A DNA stretch of 32,000 bases, from NCBI GenBank assembly GCA_041659405.1, contig JBAZYK010000011.1, forward strand, positions 31,674-63,673, in the 5' to 3' direction. Within the stretch, counting starts at the first letter, position 1, and each line of letters begins with the position of its first letter. A model generated the notes under the pieces. It was given only the letters and a program-made list of their open reading frames with translations. It made no database searches and had not been told where the DNA came from. This document shows positions 23,622-31,513 of the stretch, in pieces. The position numbers and the translations under genes were made by a program. This DNA is from Candidatus Altimarinota bacterium (GTDB lineage: Bacteria > Patescibacteriota > Gracilibacteria > UBA1369).

Positions 23622-23976
23622 GCATGAAAAAATCCGAATAGTGCGAAAACTTTTCGTAGCGAATACCCTGCCCTTTTGGAAAATACTAAAAAACTTTTCA
23701 GGGAAAAGGTTTTTAGATTTAAAAAAACTCCATCATGCCGTTGAACCTCAAGGATACTAAACCCCCAGTACCCAGTATGGGTGCCCGCAAACCAACCGCA
23801 CACGGTTGGATATATTGAGCCCCCTTAAACAATGCGAAGAGAGAGTATATGGGGTCCTGACGTGCAAAATAGAGTAACCAAAATGTAACAAAAATCAGCC
23901 AAAATATCAAGGACTTCCCGGCTTAAAAAATAGTCAACTAGCCATTGTATCTGGTCAGTCGACAACGCCCCTATTG

Positions 23977-25022: not shown

Positions 25023-25112
25023 GGAGAGATCGCATAGTGGCCGAGTGCGCATGCTTGGAAAGCATGTAACGTCGCAAGGCGTTCGAGGGTTCGAATCCCT
25101 CTCTCTCCGCCA
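25023..25112 (+). tRNA. tRNA-Ser (anticodon GGA), CCA encoded
   Basis: Acceptor GGAGAGA/TCTCTCC, anticodon stem CATGC/GCATG with loop TTGGAAA, long variable arm, T arm GAGGG TTCGAAT CCCTC. Confidence 0.9.
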
Positions 25113-25291: not shown

Positions 25292-25837
25292 ATGAAAAAA
25301 ATTTTATTACCACTGCTACTCATTGTTTTCATTCAAACGGGTTGTGGTAACGGCGGAATTAAAGAAGAAGCCCACACCCAACGACCGGGTGAGTTTAAAA
25401 ATGGGCAACTGTATGCCACTTTTAAGATAGATAATTTCCAGATGAACTATCCCAATTGGCCGAATTTTGATACAAGCAAAGCGGCCGACGCGGACAAATA
25501 CAAGCTTGCAGTAGCCAATGAAGGCTGCAGTTTTATTATTAAAGTCTCACCGGTTCCCTCAAACATTTCCTTTAAAGATTATGCCGAGAATGCGCTTCAA
25601 GAAGGGACAAAACTATATCCAACAAAGATTTTGATCAAAGACGTTAAGGACACTTTTGCCCATTTTGAAGGCGAAATATCAATGAGCAACGTTATCATGA
25701 AAAGTGTTACCTACGCCTATTTCACCGGCAAAAAAGAATCTGTCAGTGTCGGTTTGGTTGCCCGAAAAGACCAATTTGACCAAGGCTGCACGCCAATAAT
25801 GGATGAAGCGATCAGCAGCGTTAAAGTGGACTTCTAA
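25292..25837 (+). CDS. Putative lipoprotein, unknown function
   Basis: MKKILLPLLLIVFIQTGC lipobox. The 3' end overlaps the recombinase 3' end by 17 nt (convergent genes). Confidence 0.6.
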   Translation: MKKILLPLLLIVFIQTGCGNGGIKEEAHTQRPGEFKNGQLYATFKIDNFQMNYPNWPNFDTSKAADADKYKLAVANEGCSFIIKVSPVPSNISFKDYAENALQEGTKLYPTKILIKDVKDTFAHFEGEISMSNVIMKSVTYAYFTGKKESVSVGLVARKDQFDQGCTPIMDEAISSVKVDF

Positions 25838-26693
25838 TTCTGGCCAAAGCCACACTTGTAAGTCTGGTATAAATTTGAGTTGTGCGGATACTGCTGTGCC
25901 CCAAAAGCTCCTGCAAATAACGAATATCCACACCATTTTCCAGCAAATGAGTCGCAAAACTGTGCCGCAACGCATGAAATCCGGCAATTTTATTGATCCC
26001 CGCTTTTTGCATAGCCTGCAAAAAAACTTTCTGAGCCGTTCGCGAATGCAACTTCCCTCCCCTCTGGCTTTCAAAAACAAAATCGCCCAAACTCTTACCA
26101 AAAATAAACGCCTTCAATTCATCTTTTATTTTACCCGGCATCACCGAAAGACGATCCTTGCCACCTTTTCCTTTTCGCACACAAACAAGCACACGCTCAA
26201 AATCCAAATCAGCCACCTTCAAATTAACAACCTCACTCACCCGCAAACCAGATCCATAAGCCAAAGAAAGCATTAACCGATGTTTCTGATTTTTAAGAGC
26301 TGCCAGTAGTGCCAAAATCTCTTCCTTCAAGAAAACAACAGGCAAACGCCGAGATCTTTTCGCAAACTTTAAAGGAATTTGTGTTTGATTCTTCAGCACC
26401 TCCCGATAAAAAAATTTAATCGAATTCAAATAAAGATTCACCGTTTGCGGAGCAAAGCCCTTATCGTGCTTCCACAAAAGAAAAGTCCGAATTTTCTCGA
26501 CATCCAAAATTTCAATATTAGAGCCCGCTTCGCAAGCAGTAGCAATAGTCATATCCTGCGGCCCCAAAGCTCTGGAATCATTTTTCAAAAATGCCAAAAA
26601 CACACTCAAACATGACCGATAAGCCTTAGCCGTCCGCTGACTATGCCCACGAAGCTTCACTTCCTCCACCAAACGATCCAAATAATATTTCAT
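25821..26693 (-). CDS. Tyrosine site-specific recombinase, IntI/Xer-like, 290 aa
   Basis: Catalytic set: GLRVSE (R), HALRHSFATHLL (HxxR), LLGHSS (H), TTQIYTRL (Y). By eye it is close to IntI1 blocks RRLPVV, HRL..LLYG.G.R.SE...L.V.DLDF and GKG.KDR, and to the terminal (V/I)RSPL. It has no equivalent of the long IntI-specific insertion between GKG.KDR and HxLRH. Confidence 0.9.
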   Translation of the reverse strand: MKYYLDRLVEEVKLRGHSQRTAKAYRSCLSVFLAFLKNDSRALGPQDMTIATACEAGSNIEILDVEKIRTFLLWKHDKGFAPQTVNLYLNSIKFFYREVLKNQTQIPLKFAKRSRRLPVVFLKEEILALLAALKNQKHRLMLSLAYGSGLRVSEVVNLKVADLDFERVLVCVRKGKGGKDRLSVMPGKIKDELKAFIFGKSLGDFVFESQRGGKLHSRTAQKVFLQAMQKAGINKIAGFHALRHSFATHLLENGVDIRYLQELLGHSSIRTTQIYTRLTSVALARIRSPL

Positions 26694-27045: not shown

Positions 27046-27323
27046 TTGTGCAACAAGTTGCTCACGCGTTTATTAATCAATCTTCCTAAAACTCAAAAAA
27101 ACCTGGAAAAGTAAGAAGCTCCCGGTCTGTTCGCAACTCATCGCACAACAGCACACATGCGGTTCGCTGGCTTTCGGCTAATCCAAGGCACAAACTGCTC
27201 TTCAAAAAGGTTTAAGAAACCTATAAATCTCAAGAAAACTCTCACGCTCTCCCAACTTATTTGCAGCAGTCGCCCTTCGGGCATATTATACCGCTGCCAA
27301 TAAGTTCGCATGGCGTGCGAACG
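27046..27323 (+). mobile_element. Non-coding cassette R, copy 1 (97-nt body plus about 180-nt attC)
   Basis: A 278-bp unit that by eye shows no differences from copies at 30133-30410 and 30821-31098. It starts at the TT of GTTGTGC and ends at the G of GCGAACG|TT. Its attC R'' box GCACAAC (27143-27149) is the reverse complement of its own start GTTGTGC. The left flank is unique sequence (attI side). Confidence 0.85.
27261..27289 (+). promoter_or_regulatory. Sigma70-like promoter inside the R attC, TTGCAG-N17-TATTAT, reading into the downstream cassette
   Basis: Exact 17-nt spacer. Also present at 30348-30376, 31036-31064 and 31847-31875. The R4 homology ends exactly at the last base of the -10 hexamer. 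Confidence 0.5.
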
Positions 27324-27677: not shown

Positions 27678-27697
27678 AATTTCCCTCCGGTCGTACA

Positions 27698-27814
27698 GCA
27701 GCTAACAGCGCCCAACCGGTTCGCCCTGCGGGGCTCTCCCAAATTTTGTGGCGGTGAGTCGCTCCGCTCCCAATTATACCGCCACAAAACTTCGGTTAGG
27801 CGCGGACGTTATAT
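27698..27814 (+). other. attC-like recombination site of cassette A
   Basis: R'' GCAGCTAAC (27698-27706) is the exact reverse complement of the cassette start GTTAGCTGC (27323-27331). L'' GCGCCCAACCG pairs with L' CGGTTAGGCGC (1 mismatch). The right end is GCGCGGACG|TT with the G at 27808. Confidence 0.85.
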
Positions 27815-27954
27815 GAAATATGCTTTTCTTTTTACGGCTAACGCCTTACACTTTTCTATAATGAACAAATTTTATTTTTAATTTTTTAGAGGGGGTATAT
27901 GGTATTTTTTCCGCTACGCTCCGAAAATGATTTATTAAATATAATTAAAAACAT

Positions 27955-28920
27955 ATGAAAAACGAAGTAGAAATTTTTGATGAAGAAAATACAATCGTCA
28001 TTGACGATGAATATACAACTAATACTTTTGAATTTTTTCCTGACGAGAAAAAATTCAAGATCGATGTGAGTATCAAAGATGATTTTCATCATAATTATTC
28101 AACAATTGAATATAAAATTTCAGATGATCCTATTAATTTAAAAATGCGTACGATAGAGCTTTTTCATGAATTTATAGGCGGGAAAAGTGATTCAATAAAA
28201 GACGGGGTTGTCTTGGAATCGGAACTCAGAAAAGATAAATTTAATAACCAAGAAAGAATAGACGATTTGAAAAAAGAAGTAGAGTGGTCAAATGTTGTCA
28301 TATTCGGCAACCCCGAAGTCAATCTTTATATTCTATCTAAACACCCAGAGATAATCTCAAAAGATGATTATAGGAAATTTTTGCGTCAGTCTATAGAGAG
28401 AATTAGAGATGGCGTTGCTAAAGTAAAAGAAATAGTAAAAACTGATTTTCATGGATTGGAAATCCATACGGGCGACCATGGAATGAGTATTTGGTATCCA
28501 GACAATGAATCGGAAAAGAAAGAAAGTGAGGCATATTGGGATTTACCGAAAGATAAGCGTGATAATTCTGCCTATGGTAAGAAGCTAAAATATGTCGAGG
28601 ATTTTAATAAATCGCTTTTTGATGAAAAATCTTCAAGTTATGTTGGCATTTCTGAAATTGAGTTTAGAAGTAGTGATGAAATAGTTGAATATGTCCAAAA
28701 ACTACTTGATAAAAAAGACGAGCCCGCTAAAAAAGAAGTTAAACCTAAAATTTCAAAAACAAAAGGATTTATTATTTCTCTGTTTATAACACTTATTCTT
28801 TCATGGGTTGTAAGCTGGTTTGTGGATATACACCCATTTTTGATTTTTATAATCGTGCAAGTTATCGCATTTGCACAAAGCATAATTGGTGGTTGGCTAG
28901 AAAAAATATTAGAAAAATAA
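27955..28920 (+). CDS. Cassette B gene 1: acidic soluble domain with two C-terminal TM helices, unknown function
   Basis: 321 aa, very AT-rich codons. The C-terminus GFIISLFITLILSWVVSWFV and PFLIFIIVQVIAFAQSIIGGWL gives two hydrophobic helices. Confidence 0.65.
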   Translation: MKNEVEIFDEENTIVIDDEYTTNTFEFFPDEKKFKIDVSIKDDFHHNYSTIEYKISDDPINLKMRTIELFHEFIGGKSDSIKDGVVLESELRKDKFNNQERIDDLKKEVEWSNVVIFGNPEVNLYILSKHPEIISKDDYRKFLRQSIERIRDGVAKVKEIVKTDFHGLEIHTGDHGMSIWYPDNESEKKESEAYWDLPKDKRDNSAYGKKLKYVEDFNKSLFDEKSSSYVGISEIEFRSSDEIVEYVQKLLDKKDEPAKKEVKPKISKTKGFIISLFITLILSWVVSWFVDIHPFLIFIIVQVIAFAQSIIGGWLEKILEK

Positions 28921-28933
28921 AATAGGTAATCGC

Positions 28934-29920
28934 ATGAATCAAAACGATTTGAAAATCATAGAAATTGGTCATCAAATCAGGGATCTCTTTAATAATTCCA
29001 CAATAAAAAAGACACAGGTTTATTCAAGAAAACAAAGTGGCGATTGGAATCAATTTTGTGCAGCATTAGATACACTTGAAGATACCTGCTTAGCGATAGA
29101 GAATTTTCAAAAAGATTCGAATAATTTATTTATAAAAAATCCATATTTAGCAACTTACGGACTTTTGCAGGCTCTTTTTATCCAACAAGACGCTGTAAAT
29201 TTTTTAAAAATATCCTTATTTGGTATAAGCAATAAAATTGATTGGAAGGACAAAAAATATTCAGAACTTTTTAAAATTAGGCAAGTCAGAAACGAAACCA
29301 TAGGACACCCCGTAAAAAAGGAGAACAAAGGCAATAAATCAAAGTATGAAAATGACGAAATCACCTCTTGCACCATTGATCGCTCATCTTTGAGCAAAGA
29401 CGGTTTTAGATACATGTTATGGATGCACTCAAAAACAGAAAGCAAAACGATAAAATTTACGGACATCATCAGTCAACAAGATAAATATCTCGGAAATGAA
29501 TTAGAAATTGTTATGAAAGAAATTCAAAAAGAAGAGAATCAACATAAAACAAAATTTAAAAATGAAAAATTGGCCGATTTGTTAAATAAACCTTCTCTGT
29601 ACCAGATAAATCATATTTATGGCGTTCAATGGAATGACCATTTAGCATGGCCTAGTTTTAATCATTATCACGAATTATACAAAAAAATAAGAAAGAGTTT
29701 AGAAGATCGCTATGGTAAATTTGGCGAAACTTTGAGGATTCCTGGAACGGAAGAAGTAATCAAAAAATTAGATTATGTATTTGGCAAAATTGAAACATTT
29801 CAAAAAACTGGTAATTTTGAAAATTACGAACTTGAGGTTTATATTGACGCTCTTGACGCTGGAATTAACGAGTTAAAAACTCATTTAGTAGAAGTTGATC
29901 AAGAATTTGAAATACAATAA
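28934..29920 (+). CDS. Cassette B gene 2: protein with a HEPN-like Rx5H motif (candidate RNase/Abi-type effector)
   Basis: 328 aa. FKIRQVRNETIGHP contains R-N-E-T-I-G-H, which fits the HEPN Rx4-6H signature, after a helical segment (YGLLQALFIQQDAVNFL). It starts 13 nt after gene 1. Confidence 0.6.
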   Translation: MNQNDLKIIEIGHQIRDLFNNSTIKKTQVYSRKQSGDWNQFCAALDTLEDTCLAIENFQKDSNNLFIKNPYLATYGLLQALFIQQDAVNFLKISLFGISNKIDWKDKKYSELFKIRQVRNETIGHPVKKENKGNKSKYENDEITSCTIDRSSLSKDGFRYMLWMHSKTESKTIKFTDIISQQDKYLGNELEIVMKEIQKEENQHKTKFKNEKLADLLNKPSLYQINHIYGVQWNDHLAWPSFNHYHELYKKIRKSLEDRYGKFGETLRIPGTEEVIKKLDYVFGKIETFQKTGNFENYELEVYIDALDAGINELKTHLVEVDQEFEIQ

Positions 29921-30038
29921 GGAGTCTTGGCTTCGGGGCATTCACCCCCCAGCCCCTCTGCCCCTACGCCAAGACAAAAATAAAATTTGTTAATTACAAA
30001 AAAGTGCCGACTATCGTCGGAAAAAAGAAAAGCATACA

Positions 30039-30138
30039 TCATATAGCAGCGTATATCTGGTTCGCGCTTGGCTAACGCCAAATGCTCACCCATATTGCTC
30101 CCTACGGTCGCAACATCAGATATGCGCGAACGTTGTGC
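30039..30138 (+). other. attC-like recombination site of cassette B
   Basis: R'' TCATATAGC (30039-30047) matches the reverse complement of the cassette start GTTATATGA (27808-27816) at 8 of 9 positions. L'' GCGTATATCTG pairs with L' CAGATATGCGC. The right end is GCGCGAACG|TT with the G at 30132. Confidence 0.75.
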
Positions 30139-30410
30139 AACAAGTTGCTCACGCGTTTATTAATCAATCTTCCTAAAACTCAAAAAAACCTGGAAAAGTA
30201 AGAAGCTCCCGGTCTGTTCGCAACTCATCGCACAACAGCACACATGCGGTTCGCTGGCTTTCGGCTAATCCAAGGCACAAACTGCTCTTCAAAAAGGTTT
30301 AAGAAACCTATAAATCTCAAGAAAACTCTCACGCTCTCCCAACTTATTTGCAGCAGTCGCCCTTCGGGCATATTATACCGCTGCCAATAAGTTCGCATGG
30401 CGTGCGAACG
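30133..30410 (+). mobile_element. Non-coding cassette R, copy 2
   Basis: 278 bp, matches R1 by eye. attC R'' is at 30230-30236 and the promoter at 30348-30376. Confidence 0.85.
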
Positions 30411-30730: not shown

Positions 30731-30826
30731 TCCAACAACAGCGCCCATGTGGTTCGGCTGCGGCCTCTCCCAAATTTACTTTCCGCTTCGCTCCAAGTAA
30801 ACTTCACATAGGCGCGAACGTTGTGC
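30731..30826 (+). other. attC-like recombination site of cassette D
   Basis: R'' TCCAACAAC (30731-30739) is the exact reverse complement of the cassette start GTTGTTGGA (30410-30418). L'' GCGCCCATGTG pairs with L' CACATAGGCGC. The G is at 30820. Confidence 0.85.
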
Positions 30827-31098
30827 AACAAGTTGCTCACGCGTTTATTAATCAATCTTCCTAAAACTCAAAAAAACCTGGAAAAGTAAGAAGCTCCCGG
30901 TCTGTTCGCAACTCATCGCACAACAGCACACATGCGGTTCGCTGGCTTTCGGCTAATCCAAGGCACAAACTGCTCTTCAAAAAGGTTTAAGAAACCTATA
31001 AATCTCAAGAAAACTCTCACGCTCTCCCAACTTATTTGCAGCAGTCGCCCTTCGGGCATATTATACCGCTGCCAATAAGTTCGCATGGCGTGCGAACG
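30821..31098 (+). mobile_element. Non-coding cassette R, copy 3
   Basis: 278 bp, matches R1 by eye. attC R'' is at 30918-30924 and the promoter at 31036-31064. Confidence 0.85.
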
Positions 31099-31126: not shown

Positions 31127-31513
31127 ATGAAAAAACTATTACCAATTATCATAGTCGCTATTTTTTTACTTAGTGGATGTGTAGAAATGAAACCACCAGG
31201 AAATTGGTCCAAAGGGTCAGACAATAGGCTTATACTACAAGATTGGGCATTCTTTTATTTCCCAGAAGGTATAAATAAAGGAAGTGTAGTTGGACCAATT
31301 TTTCCTTATAACAACTCTTTGGAAGTATGCAAAAAAACAGCTCAAGAAAAATATCCTGAAAAAGATTATTTTTGTGGAACAGAATGCATATTTGTATGGG
31401 ATGGAATGACAATCGAACACTGCAAAAAAGGAGTAGTTGGGATATATTCAAAAGGAGAATATAAATTTATAATTAATCCTAAAATACAGGGTTTACACAT
31501 TACTGTGGATTAA
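31127..31513 (+). CDS. Cassette F ORF, putative lipoprotein, 128 aa
   Basis: MKKLLPIIIVAIFLLSGC lipobox. Single ORF in cassette 31099-31632. Confidence 0.6.
   Translation: MKKLLPIIIVAIFLLSGCVEMKPPGNWSKGSDNRLILQDWAFFYFPEGINKGSVVGPIFPYNNSLEVCKKTAQEKYPEKDYFCGTECIFVWDGMTIEHCKKGVVGIYSKGEYKFIINPKIQGLHITVD

Follow-up and report, generated by a model that had tools for sequence, protein, structure and literature searches.

Phage-defence genes have been found stored as integron cassettes, which sometimes hold more than one gene and their own promoter (bioRxiv 10.1101/2024.07.02.601719). Those examples, from mobile and sedentary chromosomal integrons, were shown in Proteobacteria with a canonical IntI and attC sites. 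An integron-cassette HEPN protein (PDB 3jrt, PF18867 HEPN-like_int) was proposed to be a stress or dormancy RNase (PMC3710099), and the abortive-infection (Abi) type HEPN proteins such as AbiU2 (PF18734; Anantharaman et al. 2013, PMC3710099) are helical proteins of about 300 amino acids (aa) with R-N-x4-H at a helix end, often encoded alone or in restriction-modification operons. Here we describe cassette B, an integron-type gene cassette of a Patescibacteria chromosomal array with two open reading frames (ORFs), gene 1 and gene 2, that encode a protein with a C-terminal membrane hairpin and a HEPN-like protein, respectively. It lies in a 32,000-nt window (the whole stretch of DNA that was analyzed; contig JBAZYK010000011.1, positions 31,674 to 63,673, assembly GCA_041659405.1) labelled Candidatus Altimarinota bacterium, Gracilibacteria.

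Gene 2 resembles the Abi-type HEPN proteins in length, helical build and motif placement, and it shares with 3jrt the position of a HEPN-type protein carried as integron cassette cargo. There are also differences. Gene 2 has a three-stranded sheet insert and a long helical domain at its C terminus, neither of which belongs to the AbiU2 model, and PF18867, described in Gammaproteobacteria rather than Patescibacteria, weakly matched only one of 48 gene 2 family members (E 0.0084), with no PDB sequence or Foldseek match. Cassette B also differs from the known phage-defence cassettes in its IntI/XerA-like recombinase, which is under the IntI threshold, in its Patescibacteria host and in its unannotated cargo. 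On balance we favour, by a modest degree, the reading that cassette B stacks two separately mobile defence-type genes instead of forming one obligate two-component system, with gene 2 encoding a latent HEPN-type RNase. Defence genes in integron cassettes (bioRxiv 10.1101/2024.07.02.601719) and HEPN proteins in integrons and beside restriction-modification systems (PMC3710099) are already established, and the locus is therefore an extension of known biology and not a surprise; new are the two protein families, both unannotated in the libraries searched, and the Patescibacteria setting.

A preliminary description of this DNA had proposed that the two genes act as a pair, a membrane protein with a HEPN nuclease, and had correctly placed the start of gene 2 13 nt after the end of gene 1. 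No recombination site lies in this gap. However, tblastn and profile searches found no gene 1 relative at any of the 79 genome loci or five additional places with a gene 2 relative, close relatives at 77-93% identity among them. In the other direction, of the 79 loci with a gene 1 relative just three carried gene 2 (L089, L108/L109). The pair did not occur outside the cassette lineage of the window (L001-L006, L089, L108/L109) and recurred within it in L003 (gene 1 85% and gene 2 93% identical), in L089 (81% and 92%) and in L108/L109, where gene 2 was 93% identical and gene 1 only 44%. A sister cassette (L090) carried gene 1 alone with identical junctions. There, GGAGTCTTGGC... directly follows the gene 1 stop codon, which is the exact junction found after the gene 2 stop in the window, so that gene 2 and the 13-nt spacer are a clean gene-sized insertion or deletion relative to the gene-1-only cassette. 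Genes 1 and 2 are thus independent modules that are rarely together. Co-occurrence in other genomes was one of the measures by which the preliminary description had proposed to judge the pair, and since the two genes do not form a conserved pair the obligate-pair model fails on that description's own terms. Its broader reading of the locus as related to defence or abortive infection survives this failure.

The gene 2 family was large and widely distributed. Seventy-four close homologues, all unnamed, were mostly labelled Patescibacteria, while a genome scan recovered 134 relatives in many phyla. A full profile search returned about 1,350 clusters (50% identity) at E<=1e-10, nearly all 300-330 aa in length, and at least 2,000 clusters at E<=1e-3, with a range covering Patescibacteria, Bacteroidota, Gammaproteobacteria, Acidobacteriota, Chloroflexota and at least one archaeon. 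The family members are named "hypothetical protein" in RefSeq, as are the few matches obtained by tblastn against plasmids, among them a Marinobacter plasmid homologue located near SIR2 and transposase genes. Searches of Pfam, NCBIfam, PADLOC and PHROGs with both proteins, family members and profile consensuses gave nothing at threshold, in agreement with the preliminary description, which had recognized no named system, and only scattered chance matches were obtained when 48 gene 2 family members were compared with PADLOC-DB v2.

The genomic company of gene 2 was surveyed with Pfam and PADLOC families for 136 ORFs immediately beside relatives at approximately 70 loci. The commonest families, which were of restriction-modification and Abi-type ATPase kind, were Eco57I/type IIG, TaqI_C, N6_N4 and N6 methylases, MmeI, C-5 methylase, MvaI/BcnI, AAA_15/21 and RhuM. 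As a rule, gene 2 relatives stood alone or closed a restriction-modification or defence operon. In one locus (L010 4005-7118) a methylase, an MvaI/BcnI nuclease and gene 2 were located between two copies of the cassette tail as one cassette, and in another (L169 1047-4987) gene 2 followed an HTH_3 gene, an EcoRI methylase, a 171-aa gene without annotation and a GmrSD_N/HNH gene. Gene 2 also followed an HTH_3 gene and a 290-aa gene (L173), and a further close homologue was arranged in the order GIY-YIG gene, gene 2, HARE-HTH gene. Some copies were flanked by housekeeping genes only (L012, L015, L016), which suggests that the gene 2 protein must be harmless alone until triggered. The restriction-modification domains beside gene 2 relatives, together with the AbiV, AbiEii, SMODS and HNH genes downstream of gene 1 relatives described below, bear out the defence-type character that had been suspected of this cassette.

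The AlphaFold2 model of gene 2 (pLDDT 89) contained helices at residues 37-60, 70-96 and 107-122, a three-stranded sheet at 143-174 and C-terminal helices at 175-324. The sequence VRNETIGHP, which had been noted as fitting the HEPN motif, stood up to comparison with the family. Neither R119 nor H125 varied among 48 aligned sequences, which went down to 23% identity, or among 26 aligned N-terminal domains, and N120 was kept in at least 90% of the sequences in both. The residues R119-N120-x4-H125 conform to the HEPN pattern Rx4-6H with a polar residue after the arginine, and in the predicted model R119 occupies the last turn of helix 107-122, which ends at T122, with G124-H125-P126 in the loop that follows. 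The complete set of invariant residues among the 48 sequences was R16, D50, G76, L78, Q79, Q84, Q85, D86, R116, R119, G124, H125, P126, Q182 and R259. Helix 70-96, which precedes the motif helix, carries Q84, Q85 and D86, all invariant or nearly so. The HEPN superfamily has a conserved acidic residue in helix 2 near the motif (PMC3710099), and D86 in this long preceding helix of the model is a candidate for that residue. Among the sub-threshold Pfam matches of the gene 2 family, AbiU2 was the only HEPN family to recur, each time at the region of the motif. From sequence conservation and the predicted model, gene 2 is probably HEPN-like, while membership of the superfamily is not proven.

One family member of 542 aa (P0265) has a C-terminal extension at approximately 330-542 with RNYLIH, a second Rx4H motif; in this protein gene 2 may be fused to a further HEPN-like domain. 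The extension had no match among PDB sequences.

Several results weigh against a HEPN nuclease carried as a separate defence gene. No curated HEPN profile reached threshold for gene 2, the best match, HEPN_AbiU2, scoring 17 bits (E=0.0042) where the gathering threshold is 26.8 (residues 99-144 aligned to profile positions 109-150). The fold comparison suggested in the preliminary description turned out negative, as Foldseek of the full-length gene 2 model against PDB gave no HEPN structure (best E 0.43), and profile and single-sequence searches of PDB sequences with the full-length protein and the N-terminal domain were empty. An hhalign comparison with an AbiV alignment of only four sequences was uninformative (probability 0.15%), and no sequence bridge to a curated HEPN family was found through the remote relatives L166, L167, P0073 and P0074. 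Neither protein had a match in PADLOC-DB v2 at E<=1. Restriction-modification neighbours made up about 9-11 of the 136 flanking ORFs, as summary counts without a formal background. The phages of Patescibacteria are hardly tractable. Finally, there is room for real cooperation, given that the genes are 13 nt apart and that the pair recurs where gene 1 is only 44% identical (L108); as the pair spans gene 1 variants down to this identity within its lineage, some selective or functional link may exist.

If the favoured reading of two stacked, separately mobile genes is correct, the N-terminal domain of gene 2 would be a HEPN-type metal-independent endoribonuclease, with R119, N120 and H125 together with D86 forming the active site, probably completed across a dimer. 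Gene 2 is normally without a fixed partner and must on this reading be held latent by itself; the C-terminal helical half probably mediates dimerization or auto-inhibition and would restrain the RNase. We infer that on phage infection gene 2 would cleave cellular or phage RNA and lead to growth arrest. This action would complement restriction-modification systems, as was predicted for the Abi-type HEPN proteins that accompany them (PMC3710099). Gene 1, which is commonly found ahead of interchangeable Abi-type genes in operons, may serve as a sensor or adaptor tethered to the membrane or act as an exclusion factor in its own right.

Gene 1 had been described as an acidic soluble domain followed by two transmembrane helices, and this held. 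The soluble part (residues 1-255) was mildly acidic with an isoelectric point of 4.9, and the hydrophobic windows at 268-316 coincided with AlphaFold2 helices at 268-290 and 294-320 (pLDDT 88). The model further featured seven antiparallel strands at 4-82, helices to residue 252, a Lys/Glu-rich disordered linker at 253-267 and the two-helix membrane hairpin at 268-320. There were 189 homologues, all unnamed, in a family centred on Patescibacteria, with the invariant residues D43, Y53, D83, V85, E88, S89, W111, H130 and R144. The best Foldseek match in PDB was C1QBP/p32, which was not significant (E 0.06, probability 0.89), there was no match in BFVD, and no homologues were found on viral contigs in IMG/VR.

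The neighbourhood of gene 1 relatives followed a pattern. A small Xre/C-protein-like helix-turn-helix (HTH) gene was located 1-15 nt upstream in approximately 18 loci, and the downstream ORF, where there was one (42 loci), lay no more than 30 nt from the gene 1 relative in 26 cases. The 42 downstream genes fell into 32 unrelated clusters, including HEPN_AbiV (9.5e-12), AbiEii (1.8e-21), SMODS, HNH and S49/SDH proteases. Relatives of genes 1 and 2 usually stand behind a small Xre/C-protein-like HTH gene and are in this respect like the restriction-modification operons controlled by a C-protein (Xre), whereas the cassette in the window has no such regulator and its 146-nt leader is non-coding. 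Identities of the N-terminal domain and the membrane module were discordant in five homologues (L097, L099, L100, L105, L108), for example 38% and 72% in L100 and 57% and 37% in L097; the breakpoint seems to lie close to window position 28615. Judged from these identities, the gene 1 family is mosaic and its two parts recombine independently.

The explanation closest to the preliminary description is that genes 1 and 2 make up a single two-component abortive-infection system, in which the membrane protein senses infection or forms a pore and works with the HEPN nuclease. Small membrane proteins are encoded beside a HEPN RNase or an abortive-infection sensor in Cas13b-Csx28 and RexA-RexB, although those partners are consistently co-inherited, unlike genes 1 and 2. 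Neither gene 1 nor gene 2 is known to resemble Csx28, RexA or RexB in sequence or fold. The short gap without a recombination site, the recurrence of the pair in L003, L089 and L108/L109 and the position of gene 1 relatives ahead of AbiV, a second, bona fide HEPN family, would fit such a system, but the lack of gene 1 at all of the approximately 84 gene 2 loci, the lack of gene 2 at 76 of the 79 gene 1 loci, the gene-1-only cassette with identical flanks and the 32 unrelated downstream clusters make it quite unlikely. Gene 1 could also be the conserved core of a modular defence system composed of an Xre regulator, gene 1 and an interchangeable effector, with gene 2 as one effector and a window copy that lost its Xre gene. 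The Xre-type gene closely upstream and the variable gene closely downstream in most loci that extend far enough, the Abi type of the effectors and the independent recombination of the two gene 1 modules (L100, L097) are consistent with this arrangement. Against this, each downstream gene is known, or plausible, as a stand-alone gene, so what looks like a system may simply be a defence-gene hotspot within a single operon; in the Foldseek searches of PDB and BFVD gene 1 showed no recognizable sensor or enzymatic fold, and its homologues were not found on the viral contigs. We therefore hold such a system to be possible while doubting it. A wider form of the idea, to which we give a similarly small chance, would have gene 1 as the hub of a Patescibacteria-centred modular defence with a C-protein-like Xre repressor, a novel-fold membrane sensor or adaptor, shuffling gene 1 modules and swapped effectors (HEPN-like gene 2, AbiV, AbiEii, SMODS, HNH and S49 protease), and gene 2 as the separate founder of a widespread restriction-modification-associated HEPN family across many phyla.

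The remaining explanations concern the activity of gene 2 itself. It may not be a nuclease. If so, the protein would be a helical one with a regulatory or structural function, its R/H pair would bind a ligand or nucleic acid, and the cassette would play no part in defence. Non-catalytic HEPN-like domains do exist (PMC3710099) and no HEPN profile or structural match was significant, yet the strict invariance of the whole constellation (R116, R119, N120, G124, H125 and P126 with Q84, Q85 and D86) and the repeated embedding of the family in restriction-modification and defence operons render this improbable. A toxin-antitoxin system that stabilizes the cassette array, with gene 2 as HEPN toxin and gene 1 as antitoxin or immunity protein, appears very improbable. 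Integron arrays often carry toxin-antitoxin cassettes, which speaks for it, and HEPN toxins with an upstream antitoxin are common, for example HEPN/MNT (PMC7641770). However, gene 2 relatives are without gene 1 in nearly all loci, being mostly solo or beside unrelated genes and in some cases flanked by housekeeping genes only, gene 1 is itself found alone (L090), and a 321-aa membrane protein is unlike the known HEPN antitoxins.

The anatomy of cassette B as a cassette was confirmed. Its 2324 bp are bounded by G↓TT (the arrow marks the crossover), with crossovers between 27808 and 27809 and between 30132 and 30133 (T27809 to G30132), and it is the only two-ORF cassette in the visible array, with a single ORF in each of cassettes A, C and D and no ORF in the repeated cassette X. 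The conserved GCG(C/T)G(A/G)ACG followed by TT closes every unit of the array. The site of the preceding cassette A has the inverted boxes GCGCCCAACCG / CGGTTAGGCGC and TTTTGTGGCGGT / ACCGCCACAAAA and ends with GCGCGGACG↓TT, an end that is common to the other sites of the array. The recombination site of each cassette starts with the reverse complement of the 5' end of that cassette (inverted repeats I1, I3 and I5), which is the pattern that an integron-type crossover inside G↓TT produces. Cassette B accordingly has the features of an integron cassette, namely a single 3' site, inverted R''/R' boxes, G↓TT and a 5' end complementary to its own R''. The preliminary description had also remarked on its AT-richness, which is real relative to the backbone (GC 32% for the cassette against 41%; gene 1 0.311 and gene 2 0.302 against 0.409) but not special to cassette B. 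The ORFs of cassettes A, C and D were likewise AT-rich (GC 0.315-0.356), so that low GC marks the cassette cargo in general.

The complementarity within the array exceeded a 7-bp R box by 24-70 nt at three places (27810-27879/29976-30045, 27323-27359/27670-27706 and 30410-30433/30716-30739). In cassette B the arms of the leader at 27810-27833 and 27849-27879 pair with 30022-30045 and 29976-30006, respectively, and the inverted repeats I3 and I2 were 92% and 90% matched. When the cassette was circularized in silico, the tail (29921-30132) and the leader formed one hairpin of approximately 230 nt with the attC core at its tip and the crossover in mid-stem; canonical attC sites differ from this array, whose circular form would carry hairpins of up to about that length. 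The leader was 83-89% identical in cassettes with other cargo (L089, L107, L108), and the same leader and tail flanked two zinc-ribbon membrane genes (L089), the methylase, MvaI/BcnI nuclease and gene 2 of L010, and gene 1 alone (L090). Terminal inverted repeats of 70 nt, together with the numerous contigs close to 2.2 kb in length, might suggest a transposon or mini-replicon; this was rejected as cassettes A and C show the same complementarity between 5' end and attC, the same arms flank other cargo and the contigs merely break at repeats. A phage origin was also rejected, gene 1 being absent from IMG/VR and gene 2 having only two remote matches there.

The regulatory signals formerly read into the cassette ends were upheld in part. 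The TATAAT hexamer exists, one base from the position first given (27857-27862), inside the leader conserved in other cassettes, but it has no acceptable -35 element and the nine promoter-like matches in the region did not exceed those of shuffled sequence (11.0 +/- 3.6). Both hairpins reported after gene 2 are real, the first at 29925-29975. The identity of this hairpin to its counterparts in L003, L089 (two copies), L090 and L108 was 95-98%, against 82-89% for the coding DNA, which suggests a functional element; it may, for example, act in termination or RNA stability or belong to the recombination site. The second, at 30007-30020, has its T-run on the minus strand and is therefore not an intrinsic terminator of the plus strand.

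Table 1. Features of cassette B and its surroundings in the window (window coordinates).
Feature	Position	Strand	Description
6S RNA gene	23723-23878	-	Just beyond recombinase
tRNA-Ser gene	25023-25112		Just beyond recombinase
Recombinase	25821-26693	-	IntI/XerA-like; adjoins array
attC-like site of cassette A	27692-27810	+	Terminal G 27808 and TT 27809-27810 delimit the crossover where cassette B starts
Cassette B	27809-30132	+	Integron-type gene cassette, 2324 bp; G↓TT at both ends; repeated 28-nt site ends spaced 2324 nt
5' leader	27809-27954	+	146 nt, GC 0.25, non-coding; right-hand palindrome arms 27810-27833 and 27849-27879; TATAAT
Gene 1	27955-28920	+	321-aa ORF; predicted cytoplasmic alpha/beta domain and C-terminal membrane hairpin
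Gene 2	28934-29920	+	328-aa ORF; N-terminal HEPN-like helical domain, sheet insert, C-terminal helical domain (predicted)
Putative catalytic motif of gene 2	29288-29308	+	Codons R119-N-E-T-I-G-H125; from sequence and conservation
GC-rich hairpin	29925-29975	+	Directly 3' of gene 2 stop; GTCTTGGC...GCCAAGAC, inner stem GGGGCA/TGCCCC
Left-hand palindrome arms	29976-30045	+	29976-30006 and 30022-30045 (I2, I3); small hairpin 30007-30020 between them
attC-like core of cassette B	30046-30134	+	Ends ...ATGCGCGAACG↓TT; crossover after G30132

The recombinase beside the array matched TIGR02249 with 197 bits (cut-off 265) in two separate stretches and XerA_Arch with 211 bits (cut-off 220), and among PDB sequences it matched XerA 4a8e with 142 bits and VchIntIA 2a3v with 139 bits. 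By these scores it is about equally close to archaeal XerA and Vibrio IntI and under both curated cut-offs, and the split IntI match looks as if an IntI-specific insert were missing. An alternative genetic code, which the Gracilibacteria label brought into question, was rejected since TGA ends 5 of the 28 long ORFs and recoding TGA fuses neighbouring genes. With TGA a stop codon in the window, either the Gracilibacteria label or the alternative code expected from it does not apply.

Other members of the array included the ORF-less cassette X of 278 nt, present in four copies (27046-27323, 30133-30410, 30821-31098 and 31633-~31880), three of which were 95-100% identical and the fourth approximately 70%. 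Cassette X has its own long attC-like hairpin and alternates with ORF-bearing cassettes everywhere except between A and B; possible roles are a promoter, a small RNA or a recombination helper. The cassette D ORF (31127-31513) encodes a small predicted lipoprotein, the signal peptide of which weakly matched the Cor superinfection-exclusion family (phrog_1119, E 0.0054, residues 1-23 only), probably as mere lipobox similarity.

Gene 2 homologues occur in cultivable Shewanella, Marinomonas, Vreelandella and Marinobacter, which makes the prediction of a latent HEPN-type RNase directly testable. If it is true, gene 2 would add a sizeable and phylogenetically broad family to the HEPN/Abi repertoire. 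Patescibacteria, the immune repertoire of which is poorly known, would then store defence-type genes in integron-like cassettes, and these cassettes would share a common leader-and-tail frame with varying cargo.

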